A stretch of 64,000 nt of DNA from Candidatus Binatia bacterium (GTDB lineage Bacteria > Desulfobacterota > Binatia > UBA12015): assembly GCA_029248525.1 (NCBI GenBank), contig JAQWJE010000049.1:549836-613835 (forward strand), read 5' to 3'. The position numbers and the translations under genes are program-made. The notes beneath the pieces were generated by a model. That model saw nothing but the letters and a program-made list of their open reading frames with translations, had not been told where the DNA came from and did not search any database. Within the stretch, counting starts at the first letter, position 1; every line of letters begins with the position of its first letter. Positions 18,431-51,403 of the stretch are shown one piece after another.

Positions 18431-18452
18431 GCAAAGCCCCTTTCGAGTCCGT

Positions 18453-19877: not shown

Positions 19878-20359
19878 GGCTCACCTCTCTCGTCTGTCGT
19901 GATTGCCGCAAAGTCGGCCCGAATAACCTCCGCCACCTCGCGGAGAAAAAGCTGTCCGTCCAAAATAATGGTCTGGCTGTCGCCTCGGCGCACCACACCC
20001 CGAATCAGGTGCTGTGGCATCCCGAGTTCGTGAGGGGGTAGGGAGTGAATCTCCCAGGGCGCGAAATGTTGTACGGCAAGAACTTCGTCGACACCGGCTG
20101 CGACTCGCAGGTCGCCTTCGGCGAGAACGATCAGGCTCCGGGGACATTCGTCGCCCGAAGGTTGGCGGTGGAGGAAAGTCGCCAGTGAGATCAGTGGCAG
20201 GATTTCTCCACGCAGATTGAAGGCACCCAGAAGTCCGGCGGGCGCACGTGGAATTTCCGTATACCGCCGTCGCTCGACGACTTCGCCTGCGACCTCGGTA
20301 GAGAACGCGAATTGGGTCTGGTTGCTGCGAAAGAGGCAATGGTCGCCGTGCGCATTCAT
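19856..20359 (-). CDS. cheW: Chemotaxis coupling protein CheW
   Basis: 167-aa CheW-like domain ([19 protein letters not shown]...[20 protein letters not shown]). Confidence 0.85.
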
Positions 20360-21968: not shown

Positions 21969-22071
21969 GGACTTGAGCGCTTTCTCGTCTCCGCCGGGAT
22001 GGTCAAGAAGCAGGTCGGGGCGTCCGATGGGAATTTTGTCGGCGTCGGGCCGATGCGGAACGGTTGGAGAA

Positions 22072-35399: not shown

Positions 35400-35537
35400 T
35401 CGAGGTTGCTCCATTCAAGAAACCATCAGCGGCTACCGAAGGATCAGACAGAAATTGGGTCGAGTTGAGGGATGCATGAGTGCTGCTCAATGCAGGGTTG
35501 GCACGAACAAGCGGACGATTCGGGGAGGGATTTCAAA

Positions 35538-36653
35538 ATGCAGATGCAGGATTTTTTCGAAGCGATGGCCGATCAGGGAGCTTCCGATTTGCACCTCACG
35601 GAGGGGGCCGCGCCCACCATCCGCATTCACGGAGAGATGACACCCCTGGAACATCCGCGACTCAATTCCACCGAGACCCGGCAGCTCTGTTACAGCGTCC
35701 TCTCGGAGGAGCAGAAAAAGCAATTCGAGGAAGAATCCGAGTTGGATTTCTCGTTCGGCGTGCAGGGAATCTCGCGTTTTCGCGGCAACCTCTTTGTGCA
35801 GAAGGGCGCGGTCGGTGCTGTCTTCCGCGCCATCCCCCACGAGGTGCCGCCGATCGCAGATCTAGGTCTACCTCGAACTGTCGAAGATTTGATCAAGCTC
35901 CCCCGGGGCCTGGTTCTGGTGACCGGCCCTACAGGGAGCGGCAAGTCCACGACGATGGCCTCGATGGTTGATCAAATCAACGAAACCCGCGCCGAACATA
36001 TCATGACCGTCGAAGATCCAATCGAGTTCATTCATCCTCATAAGCGCTGCGTGGTTAACCAGCGAGAAGTTTTTGCAGATACGCAAAGTTTTGGTCAGGC
36101 CTTGAAGCATATTCTGCGTCAGGATCCGGATGTGGTTCTGGTTGGTGAGTTGCGGGATCTGGAAACAATCGAAGCCGCTTTGACGATTGCGGAGACCGGA
36201 CATCTGGTCTTTGCGACCCTCCATACGAATTCGGCAGTGCAGACAATCAACCGTGTGATCGATGTCTTTCCGGCGCACCAGCAATCGCAGGTCCGAGCCC
36301 AGCTTTCCCTGGTTCTCGAAGCGGTCATTTCACAGACATTATTGCCCCGTGCGGACAAGGATGGCCGCGTCATGGCCTGCGAATTGATGATCCCGAATGC
36401 AGCAATACGGAATTTGATCCGCGAAGAGAAAGTCCACCAACTCTACTCGCAGATGCAGGTGGGCCAGGACAAAAACGGTATGGTGACGTTGTCCCAGTCC
36501 CTCCTGGACCTGCACAGTCGCGGAATGATCTCACGTGAAGCTGCTTTGCTCGCAGCGACCGAATCCGAGGAACTGGAACGCATGATGGGCGCGTCGCCCA
36601 CCGACCGTCAGAAGGGTGGCGGGGTTTCCCCGCGCATCACTTTGGCACGCTGA
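35538..36653 (+). CDS. pilT: Twitching-motility retraction ATPase PilT
   Basis: ATG 35538 with GGGGAGGGA upstream gives MQMQDFFEAMADQGASDLHLTEGAAPTIRIHGEM. Walker A GPTGSGKSTT, ILRQDPDVVLVGELRD and the AIRNLIRE motif typical of PilT/PilU are present. Confidence 0.85.
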   Translation: MQMQDFFEAMADQGASDLHLTEGAAPTIRIHGEMTPLEHPRLNSTETRQLCYSVLSEEQKKQFEEESELDFSFGVQGISRFRGNLFVQKGAVGAVFRAIPHEVPPIADLGLPRTVEDLIKLPRGLVLVTGPTGSGKSTTMASMVDQINETRAEHIMTVEDPIEFIHPHKRCVVNQREVFADTQSFGQALKHILRQDPDVVLVGELRDLETIEAALTIAETGHLVFATLHTNSAVQTINRVIDVFPAHQQSQVRAQLSLVLEAVISQTLLPRADKDGRVMACELMIPNAAIRNLIREEKVHQLYSQMQVGQDKNGMVTLSQSLLDLHSRGMISREAALLAATESEELERMMGASPTDRQKGGGVSPRITLAR

Positions 36654-36661
36654 GGTTTCTG

Positions 36662-37885
36662 ATGCCTGTTTTTGCATACGAAGGCCGGACGGCCAGTGGC
36701 AAGATTCTGCGCGGCGATATGGAAGCCGACTCCCGGGAGGCGGTGATTTCCCGACTGCGCTCCCAACGCATTCAACCGATTACCAAGAAGATCAAGGAAA
36801 AGGGCAAAGGCCTTTCTCGCGAAATTAATCTTCCAACGATTGGAAACCCGGTCTCGCAGCAGGAAGTGGTGGTTTTCACCCGTCAGCTGACCACAATGGT
36901 CGAGTCGGGGATGCCGCTTGTCCAGACGCTCGACATTCTCGGGTTGCAGAGCGAGAACAAGCATTTCAAGAAAGAAATTCTCGCGGTCAAGGAATCTGTC
37001 GAATCCGGAGCGACATTCTCCGAAGCATTGCACCGCTTTCCCGGCACCTGGGACGAGCTCTATACGAATATGGTTCAGGCGGGCGAGATTGGCGGGATCC
37101 TCGATACGATTCTGTCCCGGCTCTCTGTCTATATGGAGAAATCGCTCTCTCTCAAGCGTAAAATCAAAGGAGCGATGATCTATCCGGTCACCATTCTATC
37201 GGTCGCCGTTGCTGTGACCATGGTGCTTCTGGTGTTCGTGATCCCGGTTTTCGGGGAACTCTTCGGTAGTTTCGGGCAGGCGCTTCCCTTGCCGACGCAG
37301 TTGGTCATCAACCTCTCGGATTTTGTGATTCAGTACGTGCATTGGATGCTTCTGAGTTTCGCGTTGGTGGTCTTCGGTATACGGCAGGCGGCCCGGACGG
37401 AACAGGGACGAACGATTCTGGATCGTCTGCTGTTGAAAATGCCGGTGCTCGGTTCGTTGTTGCTCAAGGCCTCGGTAGCCCGATTTTCGAGAACTCTCGG
37501 AACGCTGGTCTCCTCGGGCGTCCCGATTCTGGATGCGCTGACGATCACGGCGAAAACCGCTGGCAACAAGGTGGTTGAAAAAGCCGGCTTTTCCGTTCGG
37601 GAAAGTATTAGCCAGGGGCATACCATGCTCGAGCCCTTGCTGGCCTCGGGCGTTTTTCCCCCGATGGTCTGTCAGATGATCGGTGCCGGTGAGATGACCG
37701 GGTCGATCGATCAGATGCTGCAGAAAGTCGCTGATTTCTACGAAGAGGAAGTCGATAACGCGGTGGCCAACCTGACGGCATTGATGGAGCCTCTGGTGAT
37801 CGTGGTACTGGGTGTGATCATCGGCGGATTGGTGGTCTCGATGTATCTTCCGATCTTTCAGATGGGCTCGGTCCTCGGCGCCTGA
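36662..37885 (+). CDS. pilC: Type IV pilus platform protein PilC (GspF family)
   Basis: 407 aa with two T2SSF repeats (LTTMVESGMPLVQTL...; FSRTLGTLVSSGVPILDAL). Confidence 0.9.
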   Translation: MPVFAYEGRTASGKILRGDMEADSREAVISRLRSQRIQPITKKIKEKGKGLSREINLPTIGNPVSQQEVVVFTRQLTTMVESGMPLVQTLDILGLQSENKHFKKEILAVKESVESGATFSEALHRFPGTWDELYTNMVQAGEIGGILDTILSRLSVYMEKSLSLKRKIKGAMIYPVTILSVAVAVTMVLLVFVIPVFGELFGSFGQALPLPTQLVINLSDFVIQYVHWMLLSFALVVFGIRQAARTEQGRTILDRLLLKMPVLGSLLLKASVARFSRTLGTLVSSGVPILDALTITAKTAGNKVVEKAGFSVRESISQGHTMLEPLLASGVFPPMVCQMIGAGEMTGSIDQMLQKVADFYEEEVDNAVANLTALMEPLVIVVLGVIIGGLVVSMYLPIFQMGSVLGA

Positions 37886-39600
37886 TGGACCGAGAGGGGA
37901 TGACGGCGGCATCGCCCGCTCGCGGGATGCGTATCCTGCTCCTCGCTCGACTCCTGATTGTCGCTACCTTTGTCGTCGCTATTCTGAGCTGGCTCTTTGC
38001 CACTAGTGCGGTGTTCTTCGCCGGTGAGTTCCGCCCGGGAATGATCCGCGCGATCGCGGTGGACGGGTTGGCGCTGGCGGCCCTGGCAGTTGCTTCCGGG
38101 TGGTTGGCCCAAAAGCTCGAAGGTGCCCAGCAGGAACTTTTCCGCACGAATGCGGCCATGGATCGTTTGAGTGCGGTGCATGCCGCCTTGGCGACTGGTC
38201 TCGAGTGCGGCGTAGTTGTTCTGGATGGAGTTGGTCAGATCCGGTCGGCCAATCCGGCCGCACAAAGGATTCTCGGTTGTCCGACACAGGAACTGCTGGG
38301 TCGCCGACTGACTTCGTTGGTCCCGCTCCTGCTGCGAGGGCAGCCGGATGCCGGCGGGTTTCAGGACTGCGAGCAGCGATTGCCTTCGGGGCAATCGCGC
38401 AAGCTGCACATCCGCCGTGTGCCGCTCGACAATTCGGCAATTCGCTCTGGCGGCGAGGTTGTCGTTCTGCAGGAACTTTCAGCCGAGCCGATTGTTGCAG
38501 GGGCAGCCGCGCTGTCGCTACCTTTGTCCGAAAATAACCTGCAGGCCCAAAAGGATTTTCTGGTCGGCGACGGGAGCGGGATGCAGGAGGTGCGACGGTT
38601 GATCGGTAAAGTCGCGGCGGCACCGGCTACCGTGTTGATCACTGGGGAGAGCGGCACGGGCAAGGAGCTGGTGGCTCAGGCGATTCATGCCGCGAGTGAA
38701 CGAGCCTCCGGCCCCTTTGTCGTGGTGAATTGTGGAGCGATTCCCGAAGGCTTGATGGAGAGCGAATTGTTTGGCCATATCCGGGGTGCCTTCACGGGAG
38801 CGGAGAGCCACCGGACGGGCCTGTTTCGGCAGGCGCAGGGCGGGACCCTGTTTCTCGACGAGGTTGGGGAATTGACACAAGCGCTTCAGGTGCGACTGCT
38901 GCGTGTCCTGCAGGAAAAGGTGGTGACACCGGTCGGCGGCAAAAATCCTGTATCGCTGGATGTGCGCGTGTTGGCGGCAACGAATCGATCGCTCGAGGCT
39001 GAAGTTCGCGCAGAGAGATTTCGGCAGGACCTCTTTTACAGACTCGCTGTGATCACGATTGAAATTCCGCCGCTGCGCGAAAGGATGGAGGATCTGCCGG
39101 CGCTTCTCGAACATTTCCTGCAGCAAGCAGTGCTACGTCACCGCCGAGCCATTCGTGGAATCGATCGGGAGGCGATGCAATGCCTGCAGGGGGGCCGCTA
39201 CCCGGGGAACGTGCGGGAACTGAAAAATATCGTCGAATACGCGGTGACTCTCGCCGAGTCGGAGGAGTTGACGCGAGAGGACCTTCCCGAGGCGTTGCGC
39301 AAAATAGCAGGAACCCCGGACCCCGAAGAAATTGCCCCGCACGCAACCCTGGTAGCCGAGGTTCCGGTCGGAGGCGGAGATCAGACGCGACAGGATTTGC
39401 TCGATTTTGCGTCCCGGATCTCCGAGAGTTTGGATGAACGACTGGCACGGACCGAACGAGATCTGATTCTCGAGGCGCTGGATCGCGCGTCTGGAGTCAA
39501 AAAGCACGCGGCCGCGCTGCTTGGCGTGAATTATCGGTCCTTGCGTCACCGCCTCCAGAAGCACGGAATTGCGGGCCGCTCGGGCCGGGCGCGCTTTTGA
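37885..39600 (+). CDS. Membrane-anchored PAS-sensor sigma-54-dependent transcriptional activator (no receiver domain), Fis-type HTH
   Basis: N-terminal TM helices plus a PAS-like block (GVVVLDGVGQIRSANPAAQRILG). The sigma-54 AAA+ core follows (VLITGESGTGKELVAQAIH...GAFTGA...ESELFGH), then a C-terminal HTH (AAALLGVNYRSLRHRL). Its ATG overlaps the pilC stop. Confidence 0.85.
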   Translation: MDREGMTAASPARGMRILLLARLLIVATFVVAILSWLFATSAVFFAGEFRPGMIRAIAVDGLALAALAVASGWLAQKLEGAQQELFRTNAAMDRLSAVHAALATGLECGVVVLDGVGQIRSANPAAQRILGCPTQELLGRRLTSLVPLLLRGQPDAGGFQDCEQRLPSGQSRKLHIRRVPLDNSAIRSGGEVVVLQELSAEPIVAGAAALSLPLSENNLQAQKDFLVGDGSGMQEVRRLIGKVAAAPATVLITGESGTGKELVAQAIHAASERASGPFVVVNCGAIPEGLMESELFGHIRGAFTGAESHRTGLFRQAQGGTLFLDEVGELTQALQVRLLRVLQEKVVTPVGGKNPVSLDVRVLAATNRSLEAEVRAERFRQDLFYRLAVITIEIPPLRERMEDLPALLEHFLQQAVLRHRRAIRGIDREAMQCLQGGRYPGNVRELKNIVEYAVTLAESEELTREDLPEALRKIAGTPDPEEIAPHATLVAEVPVGGGDQTRQDLLDFASRISESLDERLARTERDLILEALDRASGVKKHAAALLGVNYRSLRHRLQKHGIAGRSGRARF

Positions 39601-39815: not shown

Positions 39816-39831
39816 TGGCACCGACCTTGCA
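39816..39831 (+). promoter_or_regulatory. Sigma-54 (-24/-12) promoter of pilA: TGGCAC-cgacc-TTGCA
   Basis: An exact match to the TGGCAC-N5-TTGCW consensus lies 97 nt upstream of the pilA ATG. The imperfect inverted repeat GTCAGAAAC-N5-GTTTCGGAC (39720-39742) about 85 bp further upstream is a candidate UAS. Confidence 0.7.
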
Positions 39832-39927: not shown

Positions 39928-40314
39928 ATGGAAATGATCAAGAATCTGAAGGAGCGAGACGAAAAGGGCTTTACCCTGATTGAATTGCTCGTCGTTGTAG
40001 CAATCATCGGAATTTTGGCGGCGATCGCGATTCCGCAGTTCTCGGCCTACCGGGAGCAGGGTTTCGACGCTCAGGCCTCTTCGCATCTGCGTAATATTGC
40101 GCTGGCACAGGAAGCCTATTTCGCGCAGGAAGCCACCTATGCAGCGGATGTCGCGTCACTGGCCCCGGCCGTGCAGACGGATTCGGATATTCCGGTCACC
40201 GTGGCTCTCAAGACCGGTGGTTTCACGTTGCAGGCGGCCCACGCCAGCGGCGGTAAAACTTTCAACTGGGACTCCACGCTGGGTGGTTTGCAAGCCGATA
40301 GCGGCGGCGAATAG
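39928..40314 (+). CDS. pilA: Type IVa major pilin PilA
   Basis: MEMIKNLKERDEKG | FTLIELLVVVAIIGILAAIAIPQF is the class III signal peptide, with the conserved Glu at +5. There is GGAGG 7 nt upstream. 128 aa. Confidence 0.85.
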   Translation: MEMIKNLKERDEKGFTLIELLVVVAIIGILAAIAIPQFSAYREQGFDAQASSHLRNIALAQEAYFAQEATYAADVASLAPAVQTDSDIPVTVALKTGGFTLQAAHASGGKTFNWDSTLGGLQADSGGE

Positions 40315-40339: not shown

Positions 40340-40379
40340 AATGGCGCCACTCCTCCGGGGGTGGCGCCATTCTTGTTTC
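40340..40379 (+). terminator. Rho-independent terminator after pilA
   Basis: Perfect 10-bp inverted repeat AATGGCGCCA...TGGCGCCATT with a 12-nt loop, followed by CTTGTTTC. It lies 25 nt after the pilA stop. Confidence 0.7.
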
Positions 40380-40440: not shown

Positions 40441-41241
40441 ATGACATCCGTGGATTTGGAAACTTTCATGCTTCTTCTGGTCTTGGTGACGGGGGCGATG
40501 GTTGGCAGTTTTTTGAATGTCGTCATCCATCGTGTCCCCCGTGGGGAAAGCGTTGTTACCCCGCGATCACGTTGCCCGAGCTGTCAGCACGAAATTTCCT
40601 GGTGGGAAAATATTCCTGTGGTCTCGTGGCTTCTGCTCCGAGGGCGTTGCCGGGGCTGTGGGGAAGCAATTTCTTTCCGCTACGTTCTGGTGGAGATCCT
40701 GGCTGCCCTTCTCGCGGGCCTGTTGTTTTTCAGATTTGGCCCGACGGTAATTTTTCTATTCTTTACGTATTTTGCCCTCAATCTGCTCGCGCTGACCTAT
40801 ATTGACCTCGACCATCAATTATTGCCTGACCGCTTGACCTTGAGTGGCTTGGGGGTCGGGTTGCTGGGAGCGCCGTTCGTTTTACCCGGGGAGCCCGGCC
40901 CGGCATTTCTTTTCGCCCTGCAGGGGGCGCTGGTGGGCGGAGGACTGCTTTACGGGGTTGCCTGGGCCTACGAGAAAATGACCGGGCGACAGGGCATGGG
41001 CGGCGGCGATATCAAATTTCTCGCCATGATCGGGGCTTTTCTCGGCTGGGAGGGCGCGCTGCTTTCGCTCTTTCTCGGGTCGCTGGCGGGGTCGCTGATC
41101 GGCTTGGCGCTCATGCTCGGCCGCGGCGCGAATCGTCGATTGGCATTGCCGTTTGGTCCTTTTCTGGCGATTGGTGCTCTGGTCACCCTCCTGTGGGGGC
41201 CGCAGATCCTGCACTGGTATTTCGGCTCGCTGCGGCTCTGA
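40441..41241 (+). CDS. pilD: Prepilin peptidase / N-methyltransferase PilD (peptidase A24)
   Basis: N-terminal tetracysteine (CPSCQHEISWWENIPVVSWLLLRGRCRGC), multi-TM body and the catalytic-Asp region. Confidence 0.9.
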   Translation: MTSVDLETFMLLLVLVTGAMVGSFLNVVIHRVPRGESVVTPRSRCPSCQHEISWWENIPVVSWLLLRGRCRGCGEAISFRYVLVEILAALLAGLLFFRFGPTVIFLFFTYFALNLLALTYIDLDHQLLPDRLTLSGLGVGLLGAPFVLPGEPGPAFLFALQGALVGGGLLYGVAWAYEKMTGRQGMGGGDIKFLAMIGAFLGWEGALLSLFLGSLAGSLIGLALMLGRGANRRLALPFGPFLAIGALVTLLWGPQILHWYFGSLRL

Positions 41242-41321: not shown

Positions 41322-41969
41322 ATGACTCATGAAAATTGGACCACGCAAGCGAAAAGCAGCATGCGAATTGCGTGCGCGACCCTCGGAGTACTCGGATTGA
41401 TTTCGACGGGATGGTTGACGGCAGCGAACGCGGCCATGTCGGTTGTGGGCTCGAGTTATGGCCGTGATTGCTATCTCAGCGCCTCGATGGGAGGCGATAG
41501 TCAGCAAGAGATTCATAAATGTCGGATGGCCCTGACCTTGGAACGTTTGGGGGATCGCGACCGCGCGGCGACTCTGGTCAACCTGGGAATCATTCTGACC
41601 CATGCGGCGCGCCACGATGAAGCGATCAGTTCATTTGATTCTGCGGAGAAGATCAATCCGGGCCTCACCGAGGCGATGATCAATCGGGGGAACAGCTATA
41701 TCCACCAGCGAGAATTCATGCTTGCGATTGCGGAGTATGATCGCAGCCTGAAGCTGGGCACACGTCGGCGCGCGGAGGCTTTTGCGAACCGCGGTCTCGC
41801 CCACGAATACGTGGCGGACTATCCGCGAGCAGCAAGCGATTATGCGTGTGCGCTCGCTCATCGCGAGGGCTTTCCCAAAGTCGACCGTGGTCTGACTCGC
41901 GTGCGTACCAAAGGGGTCGAGATTCCGGAATGTCCCGTCGAGTTAATCGTGAGCTACGATACAGACTGA
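41322..41969 (+). CDS. Secreted TPR-repeat protein (possible PilF/Tgl-like pilus biogenesis factor)
   Basis: Signal peptide (MRIACATLGVLGLISTGWLTAANA) and TPR-like repeats (NRGNSYIHQREFMLAIAEYDRSL...ANRGLAHEYVADYPRAASDY). It lies between pilD and the minor pilins. Confidence 0.5.
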   Translation: MTHENWTTQAKSSMRIACATLGVLGLISTGWLTAANAAMSVVGSSYGRDCYLSASMGGDSQQEIHKCRMALTLERLGDRDRAATLVNLGIILTHAARHDEAISSFDSAEKINPGLTEAMINRGNSYIHQREFMLAIAEYDRSLKLGTRRRAEAFANRGLAHEYVADYPRAASDYACALAHREGFPKVDRGLTRVRTKGVEIPECPVELIVSYDTD

Positions 41970-42055: not shown

Positions 42056-42493
42056 ATGCCTCTTTGCAGAAACGTTCGTCGGTGGCCCGGAGATCGTGGT
42101 TTCACGGTTCCCGAATTATGTCTGGTTTTGACTTTGATGGGGATCCTCGGAGGCATCGGGTTGTTTTCCCTCCGATCGCAGTTGGATGGTGCGCGTTTGA
42201 CCGAGGGGGCGGCGCGCATTGCGGCGACGCTTTTTGAGTCGCGGGCGGGCGCCATCCATGAGGGACGCATCTGGCGGGTCGAGGTGTATCGGAATGCTCT
42301 TCGGCTGCATGCGGGCGGGCGAAATTTTGGCGGAGTTCCGATGCCCGAGGGGGTGCGGCTTACGTTGAACTCGAATGGGGATGTTCGTTTCTACCCGGAT
42401 GGGCATGCCGAAAACGGAACCTTTCGTCTGGCCAATCCGTTCGGGGAAAAAACGGTAGTCCTCAACCAGCGCGGTCGTGTGCGGTTGCCATGA
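42056..42493 (+). CDS. Minor pseudopilin, GspH/FimU-like (prepilin-type N-terminus)
   Basis: The leader MPLCRNVRRWPGDRG is followed by FTVPELCLVLTLMGILGGIG. Confidence 0.6.
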   Translation: MPLCRNVRRWPGDRGFTVPELCLVLTLMGILGGIGLFSLRSQLDGARLTEGAARIAATLFESRAGAIHEGRIWRVEVYRNALRLHAGGRNFGGVPMPEGVRLTLNSNGDVRFYPDGHAENGTFRLANPFGEKTVVLNQRGRVRLP

Positions 42494-42882
42494 TGCCGGG
42501 GAAGGAGAATCGACAGTTTCGTCGCGGCATTGCTGATTCCGGGTTCGGCCTGATCGAAGTGCTGGCCGCCCTTTGCCTGATCCTTGCGGCGAGCATGGTC
42601 AGCTTGTCCGCGGGTTCGGCGAGTTGGCGCGCTTTTCGTACCGCTCGTCTCGAGGCGGAGGGGCTGGCGGCCGGTCGCGACAAAATAGAGGAATTGATCG
42701 CTCTGCTCCCTGCGCGCAGGGTGGGCGGACACGATCAATGGGGCCATGGAACGGCCCAGTTTACCCGGACCTGGCAAGTCCGGCCCTGGGTTGGATACCC
42801 GGGTTTGCAGAGACTGGAGGTACGAACGAGCTGGTTGGATGAGGATCTTGTGATCCTCGATCTTGCAGCGGTGGCACGATGA
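42490..42882 (+). CDS. Minor pseudopilin, GspI/PilV-like
   Basis: A prepilin-type cleavage/methylation N-terminus (SG | FGLIEVLAALCLILAAS) is present. 130 aa, ATGA overlap. Confidence 0.55.
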   Translation: MMPGKENRQFRRGIADSGFGLIEVLAALCLILAASMVSLSAGSASWRAFRTARLEAEGLAAGRDKIEELIALLPARRVGGHDQWGHGTAQFTRTWQVRPWVGYPGLQRLEVRTSWLDEDLVILDLAAVAR

Positions 42883-43508
42883 ATCCTGCACCTGTCTCTG
42901 GTCCGGGTTCTGGCGCCGGTTTTTCTTTGGTCGAACTTCTGGTTTCGATGGGATTGGGGACCATGGTTCTGGCGACCGGGGTGGCTCTGGTTTTGGGACA
43001 TGCCCGGTGGACCTTCCAGTTGCGTCAGGAGGCACACGCGCTCGCCGGTTTGCACTGGGCGATCGAGCAGACGGCCGCAGATCTTTACAGTACAGGGGTC
43101 GACCCACAGGGCATCCACCCGCTTGATCCCCTCGAAATCAGTCGGCATGCATTCTCGCGGGCCGCCGACCTTGACGGTGACGGGCGTGTGGACACTCGCT
43201 CGGCCGAGTCTGTGTCCGTCCTTCTTTCTCCGCAGGGTGATCTGATCCGGCAGGTTGGTCGGCAGCGGATGGCTCTTCTGTCGGGCGTGGCGCCCGGGGG
43301 ATTCTCCCTGCAAACTTTCGATCGCTTCGGTGAACGCACGGAGCCAGCGGCATCCGCCGGGCCAAGGGGTTCCCTGATGCCTCCATCGAATGCTGATGCG
43401 GAGGTTGCTCGAGTGCTCTTTCAGATGGATACCTTGCGTGGAGGCCGTTTGACCTCGAGCGTGGCACTGCGTTGGGTGGCCCGACGCGAGAACGCAACCC
43501 TTCCATGA
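42879..43508 (+). CDS. Minor pseudopilin, GspJ/PilW-like
   Basis: N-terminus AG | FSLVELLVSMGLGTMVLATGVALV. 209 aa. Confidence 0.55.
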   Translation: MNPAPVSGPGSGAGFSLVELLVSMGLGTMVLATGVALVLGHARWTFQLRQEAHALAGLHWAIEQTAADLYSTGVDPQGIHPLDPLEISRHAFSRAADLDGDGRVDTRSAESVSVLLSPQGDLIRQVGRQRMALLSGVAPGGFSLQTFDRFGERTEPAASAGPRGSLMPPSNADAEVARVLFQMDTLRGGRLTSSVALRWVARRENATLP

Positions 43509-44518
43509 ACAACGAAAGGGGATCCATTTTGCTCGCGGCCCTGAGCTTGGTGCTGTTGGTCGGCGTGAGCGCCGGGAGCGTTTGGTTCTGGCTCCGCGCA
43601 GACTTGCGCTCGATCGGTCAGGGACGTGCGACTCTTCAGGCCCTCTACACCGCGGAGGCCGGACTTCTCGGTGCAGCGAACAGTCTGTCGCCGCGCCTGG
43701 AACCCTTACCCTCCGACGCGGAGCTGATGCTTTTAGCGGAAGCGAGATTGGTGGAATTCCCCGGCCCACCGCATGGCTTTCGCCTATCCTCGTGGCGATC
43801 CGACCGCTCGGCCGACGGATCGAGAGAAGTATCCGTCGTGGCCGAGTCCGAGGCTGCGGGGGGCGCGGGGCGAGCTCTCGAAGGTGTTCTGGTTCGTGCT
43901 CGCGAGCCCTATGCGCCGGCGAGTCTGCTGATCGTTACGGGTGAGCTCCGTGTGTTCCCGGGCGAGGCCCCTGAATTCTCCGCGACCGGCGATCCGGTGA
44001 TCGAAGTCCTCGGGGACAGCGATGTGGCGCCGCTCGCCGCCGGGGACCATGAAGCGGCGCGTGCACTGGAACTCCTGGAGCGGCGCGGTTCGTTTGCCCT
44101 TCGAGGGGAGGGCGGGGTCATAACGGCTCGACCGATACCGGTAGATCTTTTTCTCGCGGAAGGGCAACGAGAGGCCGTCTCGGCGGGCAGCCGTGGGTTC
44201 CGATCCTCACCGAGCGAGGTGCTCTACCTGCAGGAAGGGATCGTGAAAGATTTTCAGGGTGATGGTCTTCTCGTCGTGGTCGGTGATCTTCGGCTGGAAG
44301 GGGTGGTCGATTTTGCCGGTGTCATTCTTGTTGGGGGTACGCTCGAGCTGTCGACCTCGGAATGCAGCATCAGAGGATTTGTTCAGGTGCATGCGCTGCA
44401 TGCCTCCTCCCCCTGCACGTTTCGTCGAGACTCCGCTGCGGTAGCCGGGGCTGATGCGCTTCAGGCATTGCCGCGAGAGGCACGCTTGCGTGCCGCTATC
44501 GCCGCCGTCCGGCGCTGA
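43505..44518 (+). CDS. GspK/PilX-like minor pseudopilin (non-cleaved hydrophobic N-terminus)
   Basis: MNNERGSILLAALSLVLLVGVSAG is a GspK-type N-terminus. About 337 aa. Its ATG overlaps the upstream stop. Confidence 0.5.
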   Translation: MNNERGSILLAALSLVLLVGVSAGSVWFWLRADLRSIGQGRATLQALYTAEAGLLGAANSLSPRLEPLPSDAELMLLAEARLVEFPGPPHGFRLSSWRSDRSADGSREVSVVAESEAAGGAGRALEGVLVRAREPYAPASLLIVTGELRVFPGEAPEFSATGDPVIEVLGDSDVAPLAAGDHEAARALELLERRGSFALRGEGGVITARPIPVDLFLAEGQREAVSAGSRGFRSSPSEVLYLQEGIVKDFQGDGLLVVVGDLRLEGVVDFAGVILVGGTLELSTSECSIRGFVQVHALHASSPCTFRRDSAAVAGADALQALPREARLRAAIAAVRR

Positions 44519-44520
44519 GT

Positions 44521-45285
44521 TCAGCCTGCGTTATGAGAATTGCGACCCAGGTCGAACGGTTTCTCAACGAGGAGCGTTTCCAGGACTTTCCCGTCCCTGG
44601 CGACCCACGGTCGGTCTTCATAAGTGGTTCCATCTTCGGCATTCGTGGCGTCAGCCTTCGCATACTGGATCACCCATGCGCGCCTTTCACGATCCGTCGA
44701 ATGGTTGCCGACGGTTTTGTGTACAAGCAGGGATGAGAAAATCAGAAGATCACCGGCTTGAGCATTCAAGGCGATTGCACCGGAGGCTTCCACCTCCGGG
44801 ATCACCCAGTGGACATCGCGTAGTTCATGCGATTGCTGACCGTGGCGATGGGAGCCGGGGATGACCAGGAGACCGCCGTTGTTCAAATCGGAGTCGTCCA
44901 GGGCCAGCCAGAACGTGAGATATTCCGGTACTTGGCCGCGTTGGTAGCCGTTGTCCTGGTGCCAATCGATATGGCTCCCGGAGCCCGGCGATTTATTGAT
45001 CCCCTGATCCCACCAAAAGCGGATATCGGGCCCCAGACGATCAATGGCGAGCCCCACCAAATCGGGATGAGTGAGGATTTTTCGAAGCGGATCGCTGCGG
45101 AAATTGAGCATCGCGCGATAGGGAAATTTTCCATCGACCTCATTGCCCAAAGTCTGTTTTTCCGGGCGCACGAGAATATCGTACTCGTGGCGGATGATTT
45201 CGAGATGCTCGTCGTCGAGAACCTGTCCCAGGTTCACGAAGCCGACTTCGTCCAGGGCGTGTTGTTGCTTCGGGGAGAGGCTCAT
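44521..45285 (-). CDS. Phytanoyl-CoA dioxygenase (PhyH) family Fe(II)/2-oxoglutarate oxygenase
   Basis: 254 aa with a HxD...H facial triad (HIDWHQDNGY ... PGSHRHG). It lies antisense between the two minor-pilin operons. Confidence 0.75.
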   Translation of the reverse strand: MSLSPKQQHALDEVGFVNLGQVLDDEHLEIIRHEYDILVRPEKQTLGNEVDGKFPYRAMLNFRSDPLRKILTHPDLVGLAIDRLGPDIRFWWDQGINKSPGSGSHIDWHQDNGYQRGQVPEYLTFWLALDDSDLNNGGLLVIPGSHRHGQQSHELRDVHWVIPEVEASGAIALNAQAGDLLIFSSLLVHKTVGNHSTDRERRAWVIQYAKADATNAEDGTTYEDRPWVARDGKVLETLLVEKPFDLGRNSHNAG

Positions 45286-45539
45286 ATAGCGGCAACATCC
45301 TGCGGCTCCGGCCCGGCGTCAAGGGGGCGGCACGGTACGCCAAGGCGTTTGGGCAGGGATTTGCGCTGACGGAAATGTACGGACCGTTCAAATATCGTCA
45401 AAATATCGACGCTTGGCGTGCTTGGGCAAACTCGAGGATTGACATCAAGCTACTGAAATTACTGAATAATATAAAATTCCGCCCACGACCGCCTCCGAGG
45501 AACGAAGATTGCAATGACAAGGGCTGGAGGATTGTGATT

Positions 45540-46121
45540 GTGGCAGCGAAAAACCAGAAAAAGCAGCAAGCCCGCGGCGGCCTTCTCCGCAATGAGGGGG
45601 GATTGAGCTTGATGGAGGTGATGGTCGCGACCGGAATGATCATGATCCTCGCGGGAATCGCTGCTCCCCAATACTCGCAAATTGCTCGCCAGATGCGAGC
45701 CAGCGCGGCGGCCTCTCAGCTCCTTGGTAATCTTGCTTACGCTCGCGCGCAGAGTATTCGCACCGGCGTCCGTCACTATGTTTCGACAACGGGAGAGGCG
45801 GGAGTTTCCTATCGGGTCCAACGTGTGGGTACGAATAATATGATCGTGCCGGAAGAGGATCCCGTCCTCCGTGCGATCGATCTGCGCGAATCGATGCCCG
45901 GTGTGGAATTCGATCTGAACGGAGCGGAGACCGGTCCTTACGGAAATGCAGTCGAGGTTGCAGCTCCAGCGGCGCCGATCGTATTCACGGCGCGCGGAAT
46001 GCCGTTGGATACCGGAGCTTATTATGTCCGGACATCCGAAGGCTCTGTTGCCTACGCGGTGTCGGTAACAGGAGCGGGTCGAGCACGTCTTTGGCGGCAG
46101 ACCGAGGCTGGCTGGCAATGA
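45540..46121 (+). CDS. Minor pilin FimT/GspH-like
   Basis: Prepilin-type N-terminus GG | LSLMEVMVATGMIMILAGIAAPQY and GspH-like body (ASQLLGNLAYARAQSIRTG). The ORF track starts at 45375. GTG 45540 is preferred (GGAGG 9 nt upstream, 20-aa basic leader); the start is uncertain. Confidence 0.55.
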   Translation: MAAKNQKKQQARGGLLRNEGGLSLMEVMVATGMIMILAGIAAPQYSQIARQMRASAAASQLLGNLAYARAQSIRTGVRHYVSTTGEAGVSYRVQRVGTNNMIVPEEDPVLRAIDLRESMPGVEFDLNGAETGPYGNAVEVAAPAAPIVFTARGMPLDTGAYYVRTSEGSVAYAVSVTGAGRARLWRQTEAGWQ

Positions 46122-46492
46122 AGCGGCTCGGATCGGAAGATGGATTCACTATCATCGAAACGCTCGTTGCGATGGTTCTGATTGCGATTGCCTTTCTCGG
46201 GCTCGCAGGTGTTCATACGGTTTCGGCGAAGGCACAGTCTCTCGGGAACAATTTGGGCTTGGCGACTCATCTGGCTGACCAGCACATCGAGGAATCCTTG
46301 CGCACATCTTTTGATTCCATTGTGACCACCTGGGAACTCGAGGAACGCGAGGGTGTTTCCTTCACGGTGGTGCGGATTGTTTCGGAGATTGGCGTCGCCA
46401 AAAAAGTGGAGGTGCTGGTTCTCTGGAACGAGCGGCTTGGCCTGCGTTCGATTACTCTTTCCTCGCTGGTAAGTCAGGTGACCAACGCATGA
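46118..46492 (+). CDS. pilV: Type IV pilus minor pilin PilV
   Basis: MKRLGSEDG | FTIIETLVAMVLIAIAFLGLAG. ATGA overlap with the upstream gene. Confidence 0.65.
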   Translation: MKRLGSEDGFTIIETLVAMVLIAIAFLGLAGVHTVSAKAQSLGNNLGLATHLADQHIEESLRTSFDSIVTTWELEEREGVSFTVVRIVSEIGVAKKVEVLVLWNERLGLRSITLSSLVSQVTNA

Positions 46493-47286
46493 AGTCTTCA
46501 GCGCAGCTGCGATCGCAAAAAGGCTTTTCATTGATCGAGATGCTTGTCGCGATCACGATCGGAGGTTCGATTCTCGGCAGTATGGTTGGGGCCATGACGG
46601 CGCAGAGCCGCAGTGCCTCCTACCAGCAGGGCCTTGCCGATGCGCAATTGACCAGCCGCGCGATTGGATACCTCTTTCAGCAAGATTTGCGGATGGCGGG
46701 ATATGGAATGCTGGGCGTTGGTGCCGAAACCGGCCTTTCGCCGGTTTCCTACGCCACACAGACCGGGCGACAGGAGCTGACGCTGCGGGGAGCCTTTGGC
46801 GATGTGCGCAGCGTACTTGTGGAAACGGCCGGAGCCGGCAGCGCATCAATTCAGGTTGCTGCGGGTTCCAATTTTGTGGTGGGCGAAGTGGTTCTGATCG
46901 ATAGCGGACTGAGTTCGGAGACCGGAACGATCGCCGGGCTGCAGACCATCGACGGTGCTCTGCAGATTCAGCTCGAAGGTTCTCTGGCACACCAATATCC
47001 GATGGGGACCAAGGTCACTGAAATCGAGGAGATCATCTGGCTTCTCGAAGATGGCATTTTTCGTCGAAACGGCTCCGTGATGGGCGACAATATGCGAGAA
47101 TTGCAGCTCGAGTTCATTGACCAGGACGGGGATATTTCGTCCTCGCCGTCGGATGATCTGCGTGCCGTGAAGATTGTTCTGCGGACAGCACAGGCGACCG
47201 GACTCCCGGATGACCCGGAAGCCTCTTCCACAATGCAGACTGAAGTTAATGTTCGTAATTTGGCGTTTCGTTTCCAAATGGGGTGA
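46489..47286 (+). CDS. pilW: Type IV pilus minor pilin PilW
   Basis: MKSSAQLRSQKG | FSLIEMLVAITIGGSILG. 265 aa. Confidence 0.65.
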   Translation: MKSSAQLRSQKGFSLIEMLVAITIGGSILGSMVGAMTAQSRSASYQQGLADAQLTSRAIGYLFQQDLRMAGYGMLGVGAETGLSPVSYATQTGRQELTLRGAFGDVRSVLVETAGAGSASIQVAAGSNFVVGEVVLIDSGLSSETGTIAGLQTIDGALQIQLEGSLAHQYPMGTKVTEIEEIIWLLEDGIFRRNGSVMGDNMRELQLEFIDQDGDISSSPSDDLRAVKIVLRTAQATGLPDDPEASSTMQTEVNVRNLAFRFQMG

Positions 47287-47780
47287 TGGAAATGGTGAGA
47301 CTTCGCGATGAACAGGGGATAGTGATGCTGGCCGCATTGGGGATGGTTGCCATTCTGGCGGGCATTTCGCTGGCGGTGGCCAGTAGTGGGCAAATGTCGA
47401 CCATCGGGGGATCGCTCAGCGTGGAGTCGGTGCGCGCCTTCTACGCCGCTGACGGCGGGGTCTTTTATGCCTTGGGCGAGGCCGAGAATTTCGATCCAGA
47501 CATTGCTCGAACGACCGATCTCAGTCAGATACCGGTGGCTCTGGATGCCGAAGTTGCGTCGGCTTTTGTTGGCTATGAATCACTGCCGGGGAATTTGATG
47601 ATCCGGACAACGGATGGTCGACTGCGCCCCGCTCAATTCGGTCAGGGTGCAGGGCTGGGGAAAATGTTCATGTTTCAGATCGATTCACGGAAAGTCTCGG
47701 GCCAATCAGGTCTGGCGTCGCGGAGTCATGTGCGAATGACCGCTGCGCGTCCCGGACCATGTATGGAATGTGGAGGCTGA
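47283..47780 (+). CDS. pilX: Type IV pilus minor pilin PilX (PilX_N type)
   Basis: MMEMVRLRDEQGIVMLAALGMVAILAGISLAVASS. 165 aa. Confidence 0.6.
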   Translation: MMEMVRLRDEQGIVMLAALGMVAILAGISLAVASSGQMSTIGGSLSVESVRAFYAADGGVFYALGEAENFDPDIARTTDLSQIPVALDAEVASAFVGYESLPGNLMIRTTDGRLRPAQFGQGAGLGKMFMFQIDSRKVSGQSGLASRSHVRMTAARPGPCMECGG

Positions 47781-50700
47781 TCCGGTGGTGCCCGAGCTTG
47801 AATTTGGGGGACGGCCGCGGCTCTCGGTGAGTTTGCATCAATGGCGACGAATCTTGCTCGCAGGTTTTCTGCTGACATTTCTCTCGACTGGTTCGGCCCT
47901 CGCCTTGGACACGGATATATTCACAGGCGCGAAAGTGGACCCGAATGTCCTGATCGTTTTCGATAATTCGGGAAGCATGGGGAATGTCGCCTACAATGTC
48001 TATCCCGGTGGTGAATATACGGGCGACTATGAACCTGGTCTCGTCTACTCTCGATGCCGCTCCAAAAATGGTGTGGCGGGAGGCAATGTGCGCTCGGACT
48101 GCAGTTGCCGTCGAACACAATCTACCTACGAGGTTGATGAAAGTAGTTGTGCGGGTTCCATGGTCGACTTGATTCCGGGACCCGGGGGCGACGATATTGA
48201 TGATCGCGAGTCGCGACGTCGGCTTGGAAGCCGGTTGAATTTTGAAACCAACCCGCCGCGGAATTGCAGTTTGCCCCCTCTCGAAGCCTGCTCGAGTGAC
48301 ACCGATTGTCCAGGCGAAGACAATACTTGCGTCGAGCAGAATAAAATGGCGATCGCCAAGGGGGTGATGGTCGCTGCTTTGAATAATAGCGCCCATGAAG
48401 ATGTCCGGTTTGGGATGACCGTGTTCAACCCGGCTTCACTGAACTACAGTACGCTCGATTATTTCAATGAGGGATCGGTTACCTCATGGCACAATAATAA
48501 CGACGCGTTTGTATTTCCCGTGCAGGACATGGATGCCGCCGCGCGTGGCGAGCTGACCGCAATTATTCAGGGGCTGCAGGCCGAAGGTGGTACACCGACG
48601 ACGCACCGATTGATCGATGCCTGGGAGTACTTCAACGGCCAGATCGCGGCGAGCGGTTTTTCGACATCGCCGGTCGAAGAGACTTGCCAGCGGAACTATG
48701 TGCTGATGGTCACCGATGGCGTGCCCGAGGTTGAGGGCGACGAACTGGAATGGACACAGTCAGAGTGTCGCTTTGATCGGTTGGAAAATTTTGTCGGAAG
48801 TCCGGGCGATTTGAATGGTGATGGCAAGGAGGATCCGGCGAGCCCGGCATACCTCGCCAATACGGGCGAAATGTTCAACTGCGGCTCGGATTATCTCGAC
48901 GACGCGATGCTGAAGATTCGAGGGGAATATCCGTTGGGGAACACGGAAAACCAGCCCCTCTCCCTTTTCGCAATTTCGTTCGGGTTTGATTATTGCGAGG
49001 AGCCTGCCGAAGGCGATCTGTCACCGGGTGCGGGGTCTTTGCTCTGGCGCGCCTCGGAGAAGTACGGTGGTGGAGAATGCCTCTCGGCAGCGGATCCCGA
49101 GGATCTCGATGATGCTTTGCGGGAAGCCATCAATCTGATCAAGAATGATGCGCAGGCTTTTGTCGCGCCGGTGGTTCCCGTGAGCCAGACCAACCGAACA
49201 GAGTCGGGTGATCGTCTCTATGTGGCGCTCTTCAGCCCGCGCGAGGGCGGGACTGAATGGCCGGGCAACCTGAAGAAGTACGGGTTGAACAAGGATGAGG
49301 GCGCTATCTGTAACGCATCCACGCCTGAGTGTACGCTCGGCGGCAGCGGTGCCGCCACGCTTGAGGATGGCACGCTTCTCGCAACGGCTGAGTCGTTCTG
49401 GGATGCCGCGAGCGGGGGGCCATCGGGTAACTCGGTGACCTCCGGCGGCGTGGGCGGGCTTCTTCTCCAGAGAGATGTTCTCTCGCGAGAGATTTACACC
49501 TATACCGAAACGGCGACAGGCAACCTGGGCGGCGTGGACCTGACCGCGGACGCGCAGGCCTTCTCGCGTGAAAACGAAGCTCTGACGCCCGGGCTTTTGG
49601 GACTCTCCTCGACAGATACGGATACGCGCAATCAGCTGATTGATTATGTTTACGGTCTGGATTCGTTCGATACCAACGATGATGGGGTCGTCACGGAGAA
49701 ACGTGGCTGGATTCTAGGGGATATTATCCACTCCATTCCCCTGATCATTCGCTACGAAGAAACCGACGAGGATGCGCTGATTCTCGTCGGGGCCAACGAC
49801 GGACTTCTGCATGCTTTTGATGATGAGACAGGGGAGGAGCTATGGGCATTCCTCCCCCCCGACGTTCTTTCCAATTTGCCAGAGCTTCAACCAGACGAAG
49901 GGGGTGAGCATCCCTACTTCGCCGATGCTTCGCCCAAGATCTGGGAAGATGACGGAAAAAAAATCGTCGTTTTTGGTCTGGGCCGAGGGGGGCGAGCGTA
50001 CTACGGCCTGGATGTGACCAGCCGAGTTGCTCCGAAGCTGCTGTGGCGGATCAATTCGACAACTTCCGCCTATACGGAATTGGGCTATTCTCACTCGACG
50101 CCGGTGTTGACTCGCTTCGGTCCGGCCGGAGGCGCTCCTGTTGCCGTGGTGGGTGGAGGATATGATTTCTATTTTGATGCTGCCGATGCGGATACGCCGA
50201 ACCCGAGCGGCCACGGGCGCGCTCTCTATGCAATCGATTTGCATACGGGCGATCGTTTAGGTTTTGCGCAGGTGCCCGGGATGGATTTTGCAATTCCCAG
50301 CGATCCTCTCCTCTTTGATATCAATGGCGATGGTCAATTTGATCGGGGCTATATCGGTGATCTGGGCGGTAACCTGTGGCGAATTCGCGACGATTTTCAG
50401 GTGGACCGAATCTTCGCTACCCCGACGGGTCAGCGTATTTTCTATCGTCCCGATGCTGTGGTGAATTCTGGTTCGGTGATGGTTTATTTCGGCACCGGAG
50501 ATCGATCGAACCCCTTGTCGACAGATATTGTCGATCGATTTTATGCGGTCCGGGATACGGGGCTTGATAATCTGGCCGAGAGCTCTCTGGTCGATGTGAC
50601 GCAGAATATACCGGCCCCGGGTAGCCCACAGGAAGAGGCTCTTGCGAATTCGATCGCAGCCAAGGATGGGTGGTTTATTCGGCTCGAGGGTGAAGGCGAA

Positions 50701-51093
50701 AAAATCCTTGCTTCGCCCACCGTATTTTTCAACGTGGGCTTTGCGACCTTCACACCCTCGGCGGCCTCGTGTGCTGCGGGTGGCGATGCACGGATCTACC
50801 TTCTGAATCCGCTGAACGGAGCTCCGACTCTCGATCTCGCCGGAACGAGCGGCGGTAGCTTGGGCGACGGCAGCGGCACAGGTTCGGGGCCTGATGGTGA
50901 TCTGGTAGCGGGGGATCGTTGGGTGATGGTCGGCCAGAGTATCCCGACTTCGCTGAAGGTCACTTTCGGTGACGATGAAACCAAGGCTTTTTTCGGAGTG
51001 ACCAAGGGTGGTGGCATCGCGCTGCAGCCATTGGCTCTGCCACAGATTGCCGGCAATGTGATTCCCGTGGATTGGCGGCAAGTCTATGAATAA
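47770..51093 (+). CDS. pilY1: PilY1-like pilus tip adhesin / biogenesis factor with N-terminal vWA domain and C-terminal PilY1 beta-propeller domain
   Basis: vWA MIDAS (VLIVFDNSGSMG) and a large C-terminal PilY1/PilC-type domain. The ORF track starts at GTG 47770. GTG 47827 gives a better signal peptide (SLHQWRRILLAGFLLTFLSTGSALA); the start is uncertain. Confidence 0.8.
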   Translation: MEADPVVPELEFGGRPRLSVSLHQWRRILLAGFLLTFLSTGSALALDTDIFTGAKVDPNVLIVFDNSGSMGNVAYNVYPGGEYTGDYEPGLVYSRCRSKNGVAGGNVRSDCSCRRTQSTYEVDESSCAGSMVDLIPGPGGDDIDDRESRRRLGSRLNFETNPPRNCSLPPLEACSSDTDCPGEDNTCVEQNKMAIAKGVMVAALNNSAHEDVRFGMTVFNPASLNYSTLDYFNEGSVTSWHNNNDAFVFPVQDMDAAARGELTAIIQGLQAEGGTPTTHRLIDAWEYFNGQIAASGFSTSPVEETCQRNYVLMVTDGVPEVEGDELEWTQSECRFDRLENFVGSPGDLNGDGKEDPASPAYLANTGEMFNCGSDYLDDAMLKIRGEYPLGNTENQPLSLFAISFGFDYCEEPAEGDLSPGAGSLLWRASEKYGGGECLSAADPEDLDDALREAINLIKNDAQAFVAPVVPVSQTNRTESGDRLYVALFSPREGGTEWPGNLKKYGLNKDEGAICNASTPECTLGGSGAATLEDGTLLATAESFWDAASGGPSGNSVTSGGVGGLLLQRDVLSREIYTYTETATGNLGGVDLTADAQAFSRENEALTPGLLGLSSTDTDTRNQLIDYVYGLDSFDTNDDGVVTEKRGWILGDIIHSIPLIIRYEETDEDALILVGANDGLLHAFDDETGEELWAFLPPDVLSNLPELQPDEGGEHPYFADASPKIWEDDGKKIVVFGLGRGGRAYYGLDVTSRVAPKLLWRINSTTSAYTELGYSHSTPVLTRFGPAGGAPVAVVGGGYDFYFDAADADTPNPSGHGRALYAIDLHTGDRLGFAQVPGMDFAIPSDPLLFDINGDGQFDRGYIGDLGGNLWRIRDDFQVDRIFATPTGQRIFYRPDAVVNSGSVMVYFGTGDRSNPLSTDIVDRFYAVRDTGLDNLAESSLVDVTQNIPAPGSPQEEALANSIAAKDGWFIRLEGEGEKILASPTVFFNVGFATFTPSAASCAAGGDARIYLLNPLNGAPTLDLAGTSGGSLGDGSGTGSGPDGDLVAGDRWVMVGQSIPTSLKVTFGDDETKAFFGVTKGGGIALQPLALPQIAGNVIPVDWRQVYE

Positions 51094-51403
51094 TCGGATG
51101 AGAGTTTCGCGTCCCAGCCGCGTCCGTCTTCTCGGATGCGCCCTGGGTTTGTGCTTGTTGGGAGCGGCCTACGATGTCGCGGCCCAGGAAGCCCCCCGAT
51201 TGGTGGAGGGCAAAGTGACCTATATCGAGGCCAGCGCGGTCGAGGTCGACGGTGTTCGCGGGTTGATCGTTCCCCAGTCCTCAGTGATCTCCAGCGGCCG
51301 AGAAGTGGGGATCGGTGGAGTCCGGCGGGGGATGCCGGCTCGGCTCGAGCTTGATGCGTCCGGACGGGTCTTGGAGCTCCGGCTGTCCGGAGTTGTCGAG
51401 TGA
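51086..51403 (+). CDS. Small secreted hypothetical protein immediately downstream of pilY1
   Basis: 105 aa with a signal peptide (MRVSRPSRVRLLGCALGLCLLGAAYDVAAQEAP). Its ATG overlaps the pilY1 stop (ATGAATAA). There is no recognisable domain. Confidence 0.4.
   Translation: MNNRMRVSRPSRVRLLGCALGLCLLGAAYDVAAQEAPRLVEGKVTYIEASAVEVDGVRGLIVPQSSVISSGREVGIGGVRRGMPARLELDASGRVLELRLSGVVE

Follow-up and report, generated by a model that had tools for sequence, protein, structure and literature searches.

Why would one type IV pilus system keep two adjacent sets of minor pilins, only one of them with the tip protein PilY1? The question is raised by a 64,000-nucleotide stretch of a Candidatus Binatia bacterium genome (GenBank assembly GCA_029248525.1, contig JAQWJE010000049.1), referred to here as the window. 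A type IV pilus depends on its minor-pilin tip complex both for being made at all and for what it binds, and recent work has set tips plugged by PilY1 against tips in which a K-position pilin acts alone (GspK, ComZ, cyanobacterial PilX, CpaL). The locus has one of each kind of tip beside a single set of pilus genes, and this combination is kept across a whole uncultured class. In the reading that we prefer, with a probability of about 60%, the two sets would form alternative priming and tip complexes, one with a ComZ-like solenoid tip and the other with a PilY1 tip, for one type IVa pilus (T4aP) machine and one major pilin.

Evolutionary type of the two minor-pilin sets

The sequence-only reading of the window had placed two prepilin-like gene sets at 42056-44518 and 45540-51093, and all nine genes are found there on the plus strand. 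Set 1 consists of four coupled genes (S1a-S1d) and set 2 of six (S2a-S2d, pilY1 and S2f), with overlaps of 4-11 bases between adjacent genes of each set; coordinates are given in Table 1. As had been proposed, PilY1 is encoded in the second set only. In both sets the H-, I- and J-position proteins each carry Gly-1 and Glu5 in a class III signal peptide, whereas the K-position protein has Gly-1 but no Glu5, and the genes follow the H-I-J-K order that is universal for core minor pilins. A six-frame motif scan of the 64 kb returned exactly seven G/FxxxE prepilin N-termini, those of PilA, S1a-c and S2a-c, and exactly two Glu5-less K-type N-termini of the form ERG/hydrophobic, those of S1d and S2d. 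The S1d N-terminus had been called non-cleavable; because it retains the conserved Gly-1 (invariant in a 6-sequence alignment and at least 90% conserved in a 53-sequence family alignment), S1d is probably cleavable and differs merely in having no Glu5.

Set 1 had been assigned to the GspH/I/J/K type of type II secretion systems (T2SS), as opposed to a FimT-PilV-PilW-PilX type for set 2, and this division did not hold. Direct Pfam and NCBIfam scans of the nine proteins and of the S1c and S2c orthologue sets gave just N_methyl and weak GspH matches and did not separate the sets. For instance, S1a has no Pfam match and reaches NCBIfam XpsH/PpdA/GspH at ~1e-8, below the cutoff, and its orthologues show weak or faint matches to Pfam GspH (PF12019), a model that S2a passes with 32 bits (cutoff 21). 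S2b matches N_methyl with 23 bits and NCBIfam PilV at 1.9e-5, again below the cutoff. Since such hidden Markov model (HMM) scans barely classify these proteins, orthologue profiles from related loci were compared between the sets with hhalign. Each set-1 protein found its best match across the sets in the set-2 protein at the same position, with 95% over 126 columns for S1a-S2a, 92% over 105 columns for S1b-S2b, 96% over 72 columns for S1c-S2c, and 96.7% (E 3.7e-10) over 64 columns of the N-terminal PilX_N region for the S1d family against S2d.

At the J position, the distant matches of an S1c profile search carry PF16074 (PilW), and the T2SSJ/GspJ model occurs in none of them. Against a PilW alignment, whose reference set was itself drawn from the S1c matches, hhalign gave 98.1% (E 8.5e-14, 142 columns) for S1c and 98.4% (E 4.9e-15) for S2c. 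At the K position, S1d by itself matched none of the family models (NCBIfam GspK reached E 0.35, over the N-terminal helix only), and neither S1d nor S2d matches PilX_N (PF14341) directly. Among 53 S1d relatives, however, PilX_N was found in 22, with a best E of 3.3e-11, and the GspK/T2SSK model in none. Because of the positional profile matches, the PilW-family J proteins and the PilX_N-bearing relatives of S1d, both sets are classed as T4aP-type FimU/T-PilV-PilW-PilX modules. On these comparisons they are deep paralogues and not a T2SS/T4P pair. Recent duplication was ruled out, since the sets resemble each other only at the level of deep profiles. Of the earlier claim of two distinct minor-pilin modules, the distinctness therefore stands and the difference in type does not; the two sets fall into one family by profile comparison, and yet they are not the simple duplication that such a result had been expected to indicate.

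Set 1 had also been proposed to serve a T2SS-like secretion function, as an endopilus tip (GspH/I/J/K) that uses PilBCD to secrete proteins. A gene order of H-I-J-K, a fourth protein of roughly GspK size, the absence of a PilY1 and the weak XpsH/GspH matches of S1a are in line with such a role. On the other side, the Pfam GspH model spans FimT/FimU-type pilins too and is passed by S2a. Against the proposal also stand the GspK and PilX_N counts among S1d relatives, the grouping of S1c with PilW instead of GspJ, and the large domain of S1d, which is predicted to be a beta-solenoid and not the GspK alpha-domain. In addition, throughout the window and more than 15 related loci, neither gspG nor a gsp operon (gspC/D/L/M) adjoins set 1, which also answers the earlier suggestion that relatives might place set 1 beside a complete gsp operon. 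We give this explanation almost no weight, and the T2SS idea can be dropped. Compared with the GspH-I-J-K complex (3ci0, 5vtm; PMC13533445), set 1 shares the gene order, a K protein that has no Glu5 and, as modelled, a self-sufficient K pilin with its own terminal strand, but it has no GspK alpha-domain, T2SSK match, GspG or gsp operon, its J protein is PilW-like, and it lies in a T4aP locus.

One further feature of S1c may be recorded. Residues ~92-110 (window 43150-43200) form a conserved FSRxADLDGDGxVD loop with D97, D99 and G102 invariant in 12 orthologues, and the loop looks similar to a calcium site of the EF-hand or DxDxDG kind.

K-position pilins and PilY1

The sheet of a K pilin needs a final strand, which either comes in trans from the PilY1/PilC C-terminus or is provided in cis, as in GspK, ComGG and CpaL (Ellison et al., PMC13533445); no sequence motif for the terminal strand is given in that work. 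Cyanobacterial PilX has an ice-binding-like solenoid that was proposed to replace the PilY1 plug (bioRxiv 10.64898/2026.02.12.705559).

Close homologues of S1d are few, five among 5.8 billion proteins. When 1.84 billion representatives were scanned in full with HMMER, 66 relatives of 300-445 aa came up, and 53 of these are the ones scanned with Pfam. Profile searches of the Protein Data Bank (PDB) with shallow alignments returned only N-terminal helix matches and none for the S2d profile, and the shallow 6-sequence S1d profile did not find ComZ. In contrast, the 53-sequence S1d-family profile matches Thermus ComZ (6qvi_A) with E 1.8e-12, an alignment confined to the pilin core and the beginning of the solenoid. 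AlphaFold2 also needed the deeper alignment, with a predicted local distance difference test score (pLDDT) of 45 from six sequences, against a pLDDT of 92 and a predicted template modelling score (pTM) of 0.87 from 53. In the confident model a long N-terminal helix (4-60) leads into a beta-sheet (91-150); then come a beta-solenoid that has helices at its flanks and extends to ~307, a helix (310-319) and a C-terminal strand (326-333). The inserted domain is thus predicted to have the fold of an ice-binding-protein-like beta-solenoid, not that of the GspK alpha-domain. Because the model combines a pilin fold, a solenoid and a C-terminal strand, S1d probably caps the tip without PilY1, and by analogy it would fit the cis class of strand completion. 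In approximately 30 of the 53 family members the C-terminus reads [GS]W[RKQ][EQ]xx, similar to the end of the local PilY1, VDWRQVYE. This compact 337-aa family of ComZ-like solenoid pilins could be tractable for structural work.

Two cysteines of S1d, C287 and C304 (window ~44363-44416), are located where the solenoid ends, and both are invariant in a 13-sequence family alignment. They probably form a disulfide.

The closest counterpart of set 1 is the pilA1-pilA2-pilA3-comZ cluster of Thermus thermophilus (6qvi; PMC6561018, PMC5131608). There, too, three Glu5 pilins precede a large K protein and PilY1 is absent, and the pilin fold of ComZ, like that predicted for S1d, is interrupted by a beta-solenoid ahead of the last strand. 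However, S1d is far smaller (337 residues, against 534 in the crystallised ComZ chain), its solenoid most resembles ice-binding proteins, and the Binatia set, which belongs to another phylum, has a second set of the PilY1 type beside it.

This likeness raises the possibility that set 1 makes a competence tip for DNA uptake, in which S1d would be the tip DNA receptor of short competence pili and the PilY1 set would serve adhesion and twitching. Such an assignment would be a functional refinement of the two-tip reading. The S1d family is homologous to ComZ and similar in predicted fold, ComZ binds DNA and was proposed as a tip receptor (PMC6561018), cyanobacteria use separate solenoid-PilX sets for competence and for motility, and PilA itself has a weak ComP_DUS match (E 2e-4, below the cutoff). 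The shortness of S1d and the limited extent of its ComZ match point the other way, as does the involvement of cyanobacterial solenoid PilX in motility and adhesion (bioRxiv 10.64898/2026.02.12.705559), and comEA, comEC and dprA are all missing from the window. On balance, a role specific to competence is plausible, but less likely than not.

In set 2 the small K pilin, S2d, is accompanied by a PilY1 that had been described in advance as containing a von Willebrand factor A (vWA) domain. The protein is a genuine PilY1, with 54 bits against Pfam PF05567 (cutoff 28.1) and E 1.7e-20 against the P. aeruginosa PilY1 structure 3hx6, in which DINGDGQFD is aligned to DNNSDGVAD. It has a signal peptide, a motif like the metal ion-dependent adhesion site (MIDAS), a beta-propeller with the calcium loop DINGDGQFD, and the C-terminus VDWRQVYE. 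The vWA part of the description comes down to the MIDAS-like motif (D65xSxS, T275, D316), the VWA_2 HMM giving a weak E of 0.23 over 16 residues. Comparison of the C-terminus with solved PilY1 gave no usable alignment for the terminal motif. By analogy with the systems described, a small S2d together with a genuine PilY1 would represent the trans class of strand completion.

All long related loci retain the small gene S2f behind pilY1, and S2f is also present in loci that have no pilY1; it is a tenth conserved gene that belongs to set 2. Its product may be a PilY1 or tip accessory factor, for which TfcP of Myxococcus cluster 1 can be suggested as an analogue.

Conservation, promoters and the two-tip reading

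More than 15 related loci were gathered, partly with the 13-sequence S1d alignment, and the long ones were judged for gene order. Every sufficiently long locus has the order pilD-(TPR)-S1a-d-(one opposite-strand gene)-S2a-d-PilY1-S2f-MBL-dodecin, where TPR stands for a tetratricopeptide repeat protein, apart from the loci without pilY1 described below. Set 1 follows pilD and precedes set 2 in all of the related loci. This tandem is retained at S1d identities of 94%, 63%, 55%, 48% and 37%, and in five more long loci at ~31-33%. Among 185,579 GTDB species genomes a single match was found, in another Binatia metagenome-assembled genome, and a JGI metagenome contig (L017) is 99-100% identical across the whole region. 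S2d has 100% identity with a protein from a Candidatus Binatia metagenome-assembled genome, and a Myxococcus origin of the DNA was rejected. No literature on pili or T2SS of Binatia was found.

The two sets differ in their rates of change. Close relatives share a mean pairwise identity of 54-70% in set 1 and of 76-88% in set 2, and in deep relatives S1d is ~31% identical compared with ~63% for PilY1. Nevertheless, the ratio of nonsynonymous to synonymous substitution rates (dN/dS) of set 1 is 0.25-0.33 against the 94%-identical relative. Judged from these alignments, set 1 evolves faster than set 2, yet under purifying selection.

Promoter contexts also differ. A sigma-54 promoter, TGGCAC-N5-TTGCA, lies upstream of pilA (39816-39831, plus strand); it is the sole zero-mismatch match in the window and adjoins the gene for a PAS-sigma54 activator. 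Behind pilA there is a terminator with a 14-bp stem (40340-40371), and its conservation in relatives with compensatory stem changes suggests that pilA is a monocistronic unit. A candidate sigma-54 promoter with two mismatches, GGAAC-N5-TTGCA (45498-45513, plus strand), is situated 28 nt upstream of S2a; the GG and TTGC of this GG-N10-GC element are invariant in six loci, compared with 66% identity in the remaining spacer. Neither a sigma-54 promoter nor another conserved promoter was found upstream of S1a, and because nothing comparable to the other two sites is present there, set 1 may be read through from pilD and the TPR gene. Tentatively, then, pilA and apparently set 2 are under sigma-54 type promoters and set 1 is not. 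As to the regulator itself, no pilS-like kinase gene is present, and some related loci (L001, L004) have no activator at that position.

The proposal of one pilus machine with alternative priming complexes, already made in the sequence-only reading, remains the best explanation, given one major pilin and a single set of pilB, pilT, pilC and pilD (Pfam) within the window. It builds on computed gene content, family membership, predicted fold, conservation and purifying selection; strand completion, the shared machine, differential regulation and tip binding are the parts that we infer. Each module would form its own priming and tip complex and start polymerisation of the same PilA on the same machine, with pili of different tips as the outcome. 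In module 1 (42056-44518) the ComZ-like K pilin would supply the last sheet strand in cis and its solenoid would act as the cap, making PilY1 unnecessary. In module 2 (45541-51403) the small PilX-like K pilin would receive the last strand of its sheet in trans from the C-terminus of PilY1, which would sit atop the tip as a calcium-regulated adhesin, followed by the small secreted accessory protein S2f. The two modules would be transcribed separately. Because both kinds of tip are kept side by side across the class, the arrangement suggests that they are complementary and not mutually exclusive.

Several observations weigh against this reading. A Foldseek search of the S1d model against the PDB gave no significant match, and the proposed pairing of strand 326-333 with the pilin sheet was read from the secondary-structure string and by analogy with ComZ. 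Moreover, the S1d clade to which the window belongs has lost the W-R-E-like C-terminal motif and its Trp, ending in ...LPREARLRAAIAAVRR. In three related metagenome loci, L034 (12568-13627), L035 and L036, set 2 occurs without pilY1; the S2f gene starts ~50-250 bp past the S2d stop codon, with set 1 and the remaining synteny intact. The pilY1 gene was either lost there or relocated elsewhere in the genome, and unless it has moved, the dependence of set 2 on PilY1 is not absolute. Two-mismatch sigma-54 sites are as frequent in the window as expected (22 found, 24.6 expected), so that the S2a site draws its support solely from conservation. Finally, pilMNOPQ were not found within the window, and a second machine could consequently be encoded elsewhere in the genome.

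The two sets might also not be alternatives at all, set 1 being an accessory in a PilY1-tipped co-assembly or a redundant back-up paralogue. In favour of this, the linkage of the two sets is strict wherever a long locus is available, and minor-pilin clusters 1 and 3 of Myxococcus xanthus are each sufficient for pilus formation (PMC7541494). Yet each Binatia set encodes a Glu5-less capping K subunit of its own, of which a filament tip holds just one, and the very different architectures of the two K proteins argue for different tips. Set 1 also remains intact where K identity has dropped to ~30%, at a dN/dS of ~0.3, and its promoter context is not that of set 2. We consider co-assembly or redundancy improbable, and less likely than the competence assignment.

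A more specific version of the two-tip reading, that Binatia operate one machine and one pilin with two switchable side-by-side tips, a self-capped, cis-completed solenoid-PilX tip that apparently has no sigma-54 promoter to itself and a sigma-54-controlled, trans-completed PilY1 tip, is tentative and in our judgement has somewhat less than an even chance. If true, this would be the first lineage with both tip-licensing solutions for one filament, and it would be a natural setting for tests of the beta-strand-addition model and of tip choice, with the three PilY1-less loci as variants already at hand. No new machine is revealed, and each ingredient has precedent, namely in the three Myxococcus clusters, in Thermus ComZ and in the cyanobacterial dual sets.

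Clusters 1-3 of M. xanthus (PMC7541494) likewise provide several FimU-PilV-PilW-PilX modules for one major pilin and one T4aP machine, including a PilX with PilX_N and no Glu5 and a PilY1 at the tip. In contrast to Binatia, all three clusters have their own PilY1 and are dispersed, whereas the Binatia sets are in tandem and one of the two has PilY1. In Synechocystis and other cyanobacteria, two core minor-pilin sets prime specialised filaments on shared machinery (bioRxiv 10.64898/2026.02.12.705559). However, both cyanobacterial sets have a solenoid PilX, generally with no PilY1, and Binatia have one solenoid-type and one PilY1-type set next to each other.

Locus layout and neighbouring genes

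The pilus genes and their surroundings are listed in Table 1. G+C content across the window is 56-62%.

Table 1. Genes of the pilus locus and its neighbourhood, with window coordinates. A slash in the N-terminal motifs follows Gly-1.
Gene or product	Coordinates	Strand	Length, motif or family
aroE and ABC-class ATPase	upstream of pilB	+	
pilB	33645-35399	+	Pfam T2SSE+MshEN
pilT	35472-36653	+	Pfam T2SSE
pilC	36662-37885	+	Pfam T2SSF
PAS-sigma54 activator, PilR-like, without receiver domain	37885-39600	+	Pfam Sigma54_activat, AAA_lid_14, HTH_8, PAS
pilA, major type IVa pilin	39928-40314	+	KG/FTLIELLVV...; Pfam N_methyl 4e-10
pilD, prepilin peptidase	40441-41241	+	Pfam A24_N_bact, Peptidase_A24
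Secreted TPR protein between pilD and set 1	41322-41969	+	Pfam TPR_1/2; kept in closer relatives
S1a, set-1 H-position minor pilin (GspH/FimT-like)	42056-42493	+	145 aa, RG/FTVPE
S1b, set-1 I-position minor pilin	42490-42882	+	130 aa, SG/FGLIE
S1c, set-1 J-position minor pilin (PilW family)	42879-43508	+	209 aa, AG/FSLVE
S1d, set-1 K-position tip pilin (ComZ-like)	43505-44518	+	337 aa from ATG; ERG/SILLA, no Glu5
PhyH-like gene between the sets (phytanoyl-CoA dioxygenase, 2OG/Fe(II) oxygenase)	44521-45285	-	Pfam PhyH 1e-25
S2a, set-2 H-position minor pilin (FimT/FimU/GspH family)	45541-46121	+	193 aa, GG/LSLME
S2b, set-2 I-position minor pilin (PilV-like)	46118-46492	+	124 aa, DG/FTIIE
S2c, set-2 J-position minor pilin (PilW family)	46489-47286	+	265 aa, KG/FSLIE
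S2d, set-2 small K-position pilin (PilX-like)	47283-47780	+	165 aa, EQG/IVMLA, no Glu5
PilY1	47770-51093	+	1107 aa
S2f, small secreted protein, overlapping the pilY1 stop codon	51086-51403	+	~100 aa, no Pfam family

The opposite-strand gene between the two sets is PhyH-like in the clade of the window, and an SGNH/GDSL (AlgX-like) hydrolase takes its place in deeper Binatia loci. Because the gene at that place differs between clades, PhyH is an unlikely part of the pilus system and is probably a passenger. It is convergent with S1d, and 2 bp separate the two stop codons.

Upstream of the pilus genes, a 627-aa open reading frame at 21973-23856 (plus strand) has no Pfam match at E 1e-3. It is preceded by a chemosensory cluster on the minus strand (15647-21456), which comprises a hybrid CheA (15647-18430) with two Hpt matches and CheW-like and receiver domains, a methyl-accepting chemotaxis protein (18453-19877) and a 366-aa response regulator (20356-21456). 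This cluster may be a Pil-Chp/Frz-like pilus control system.

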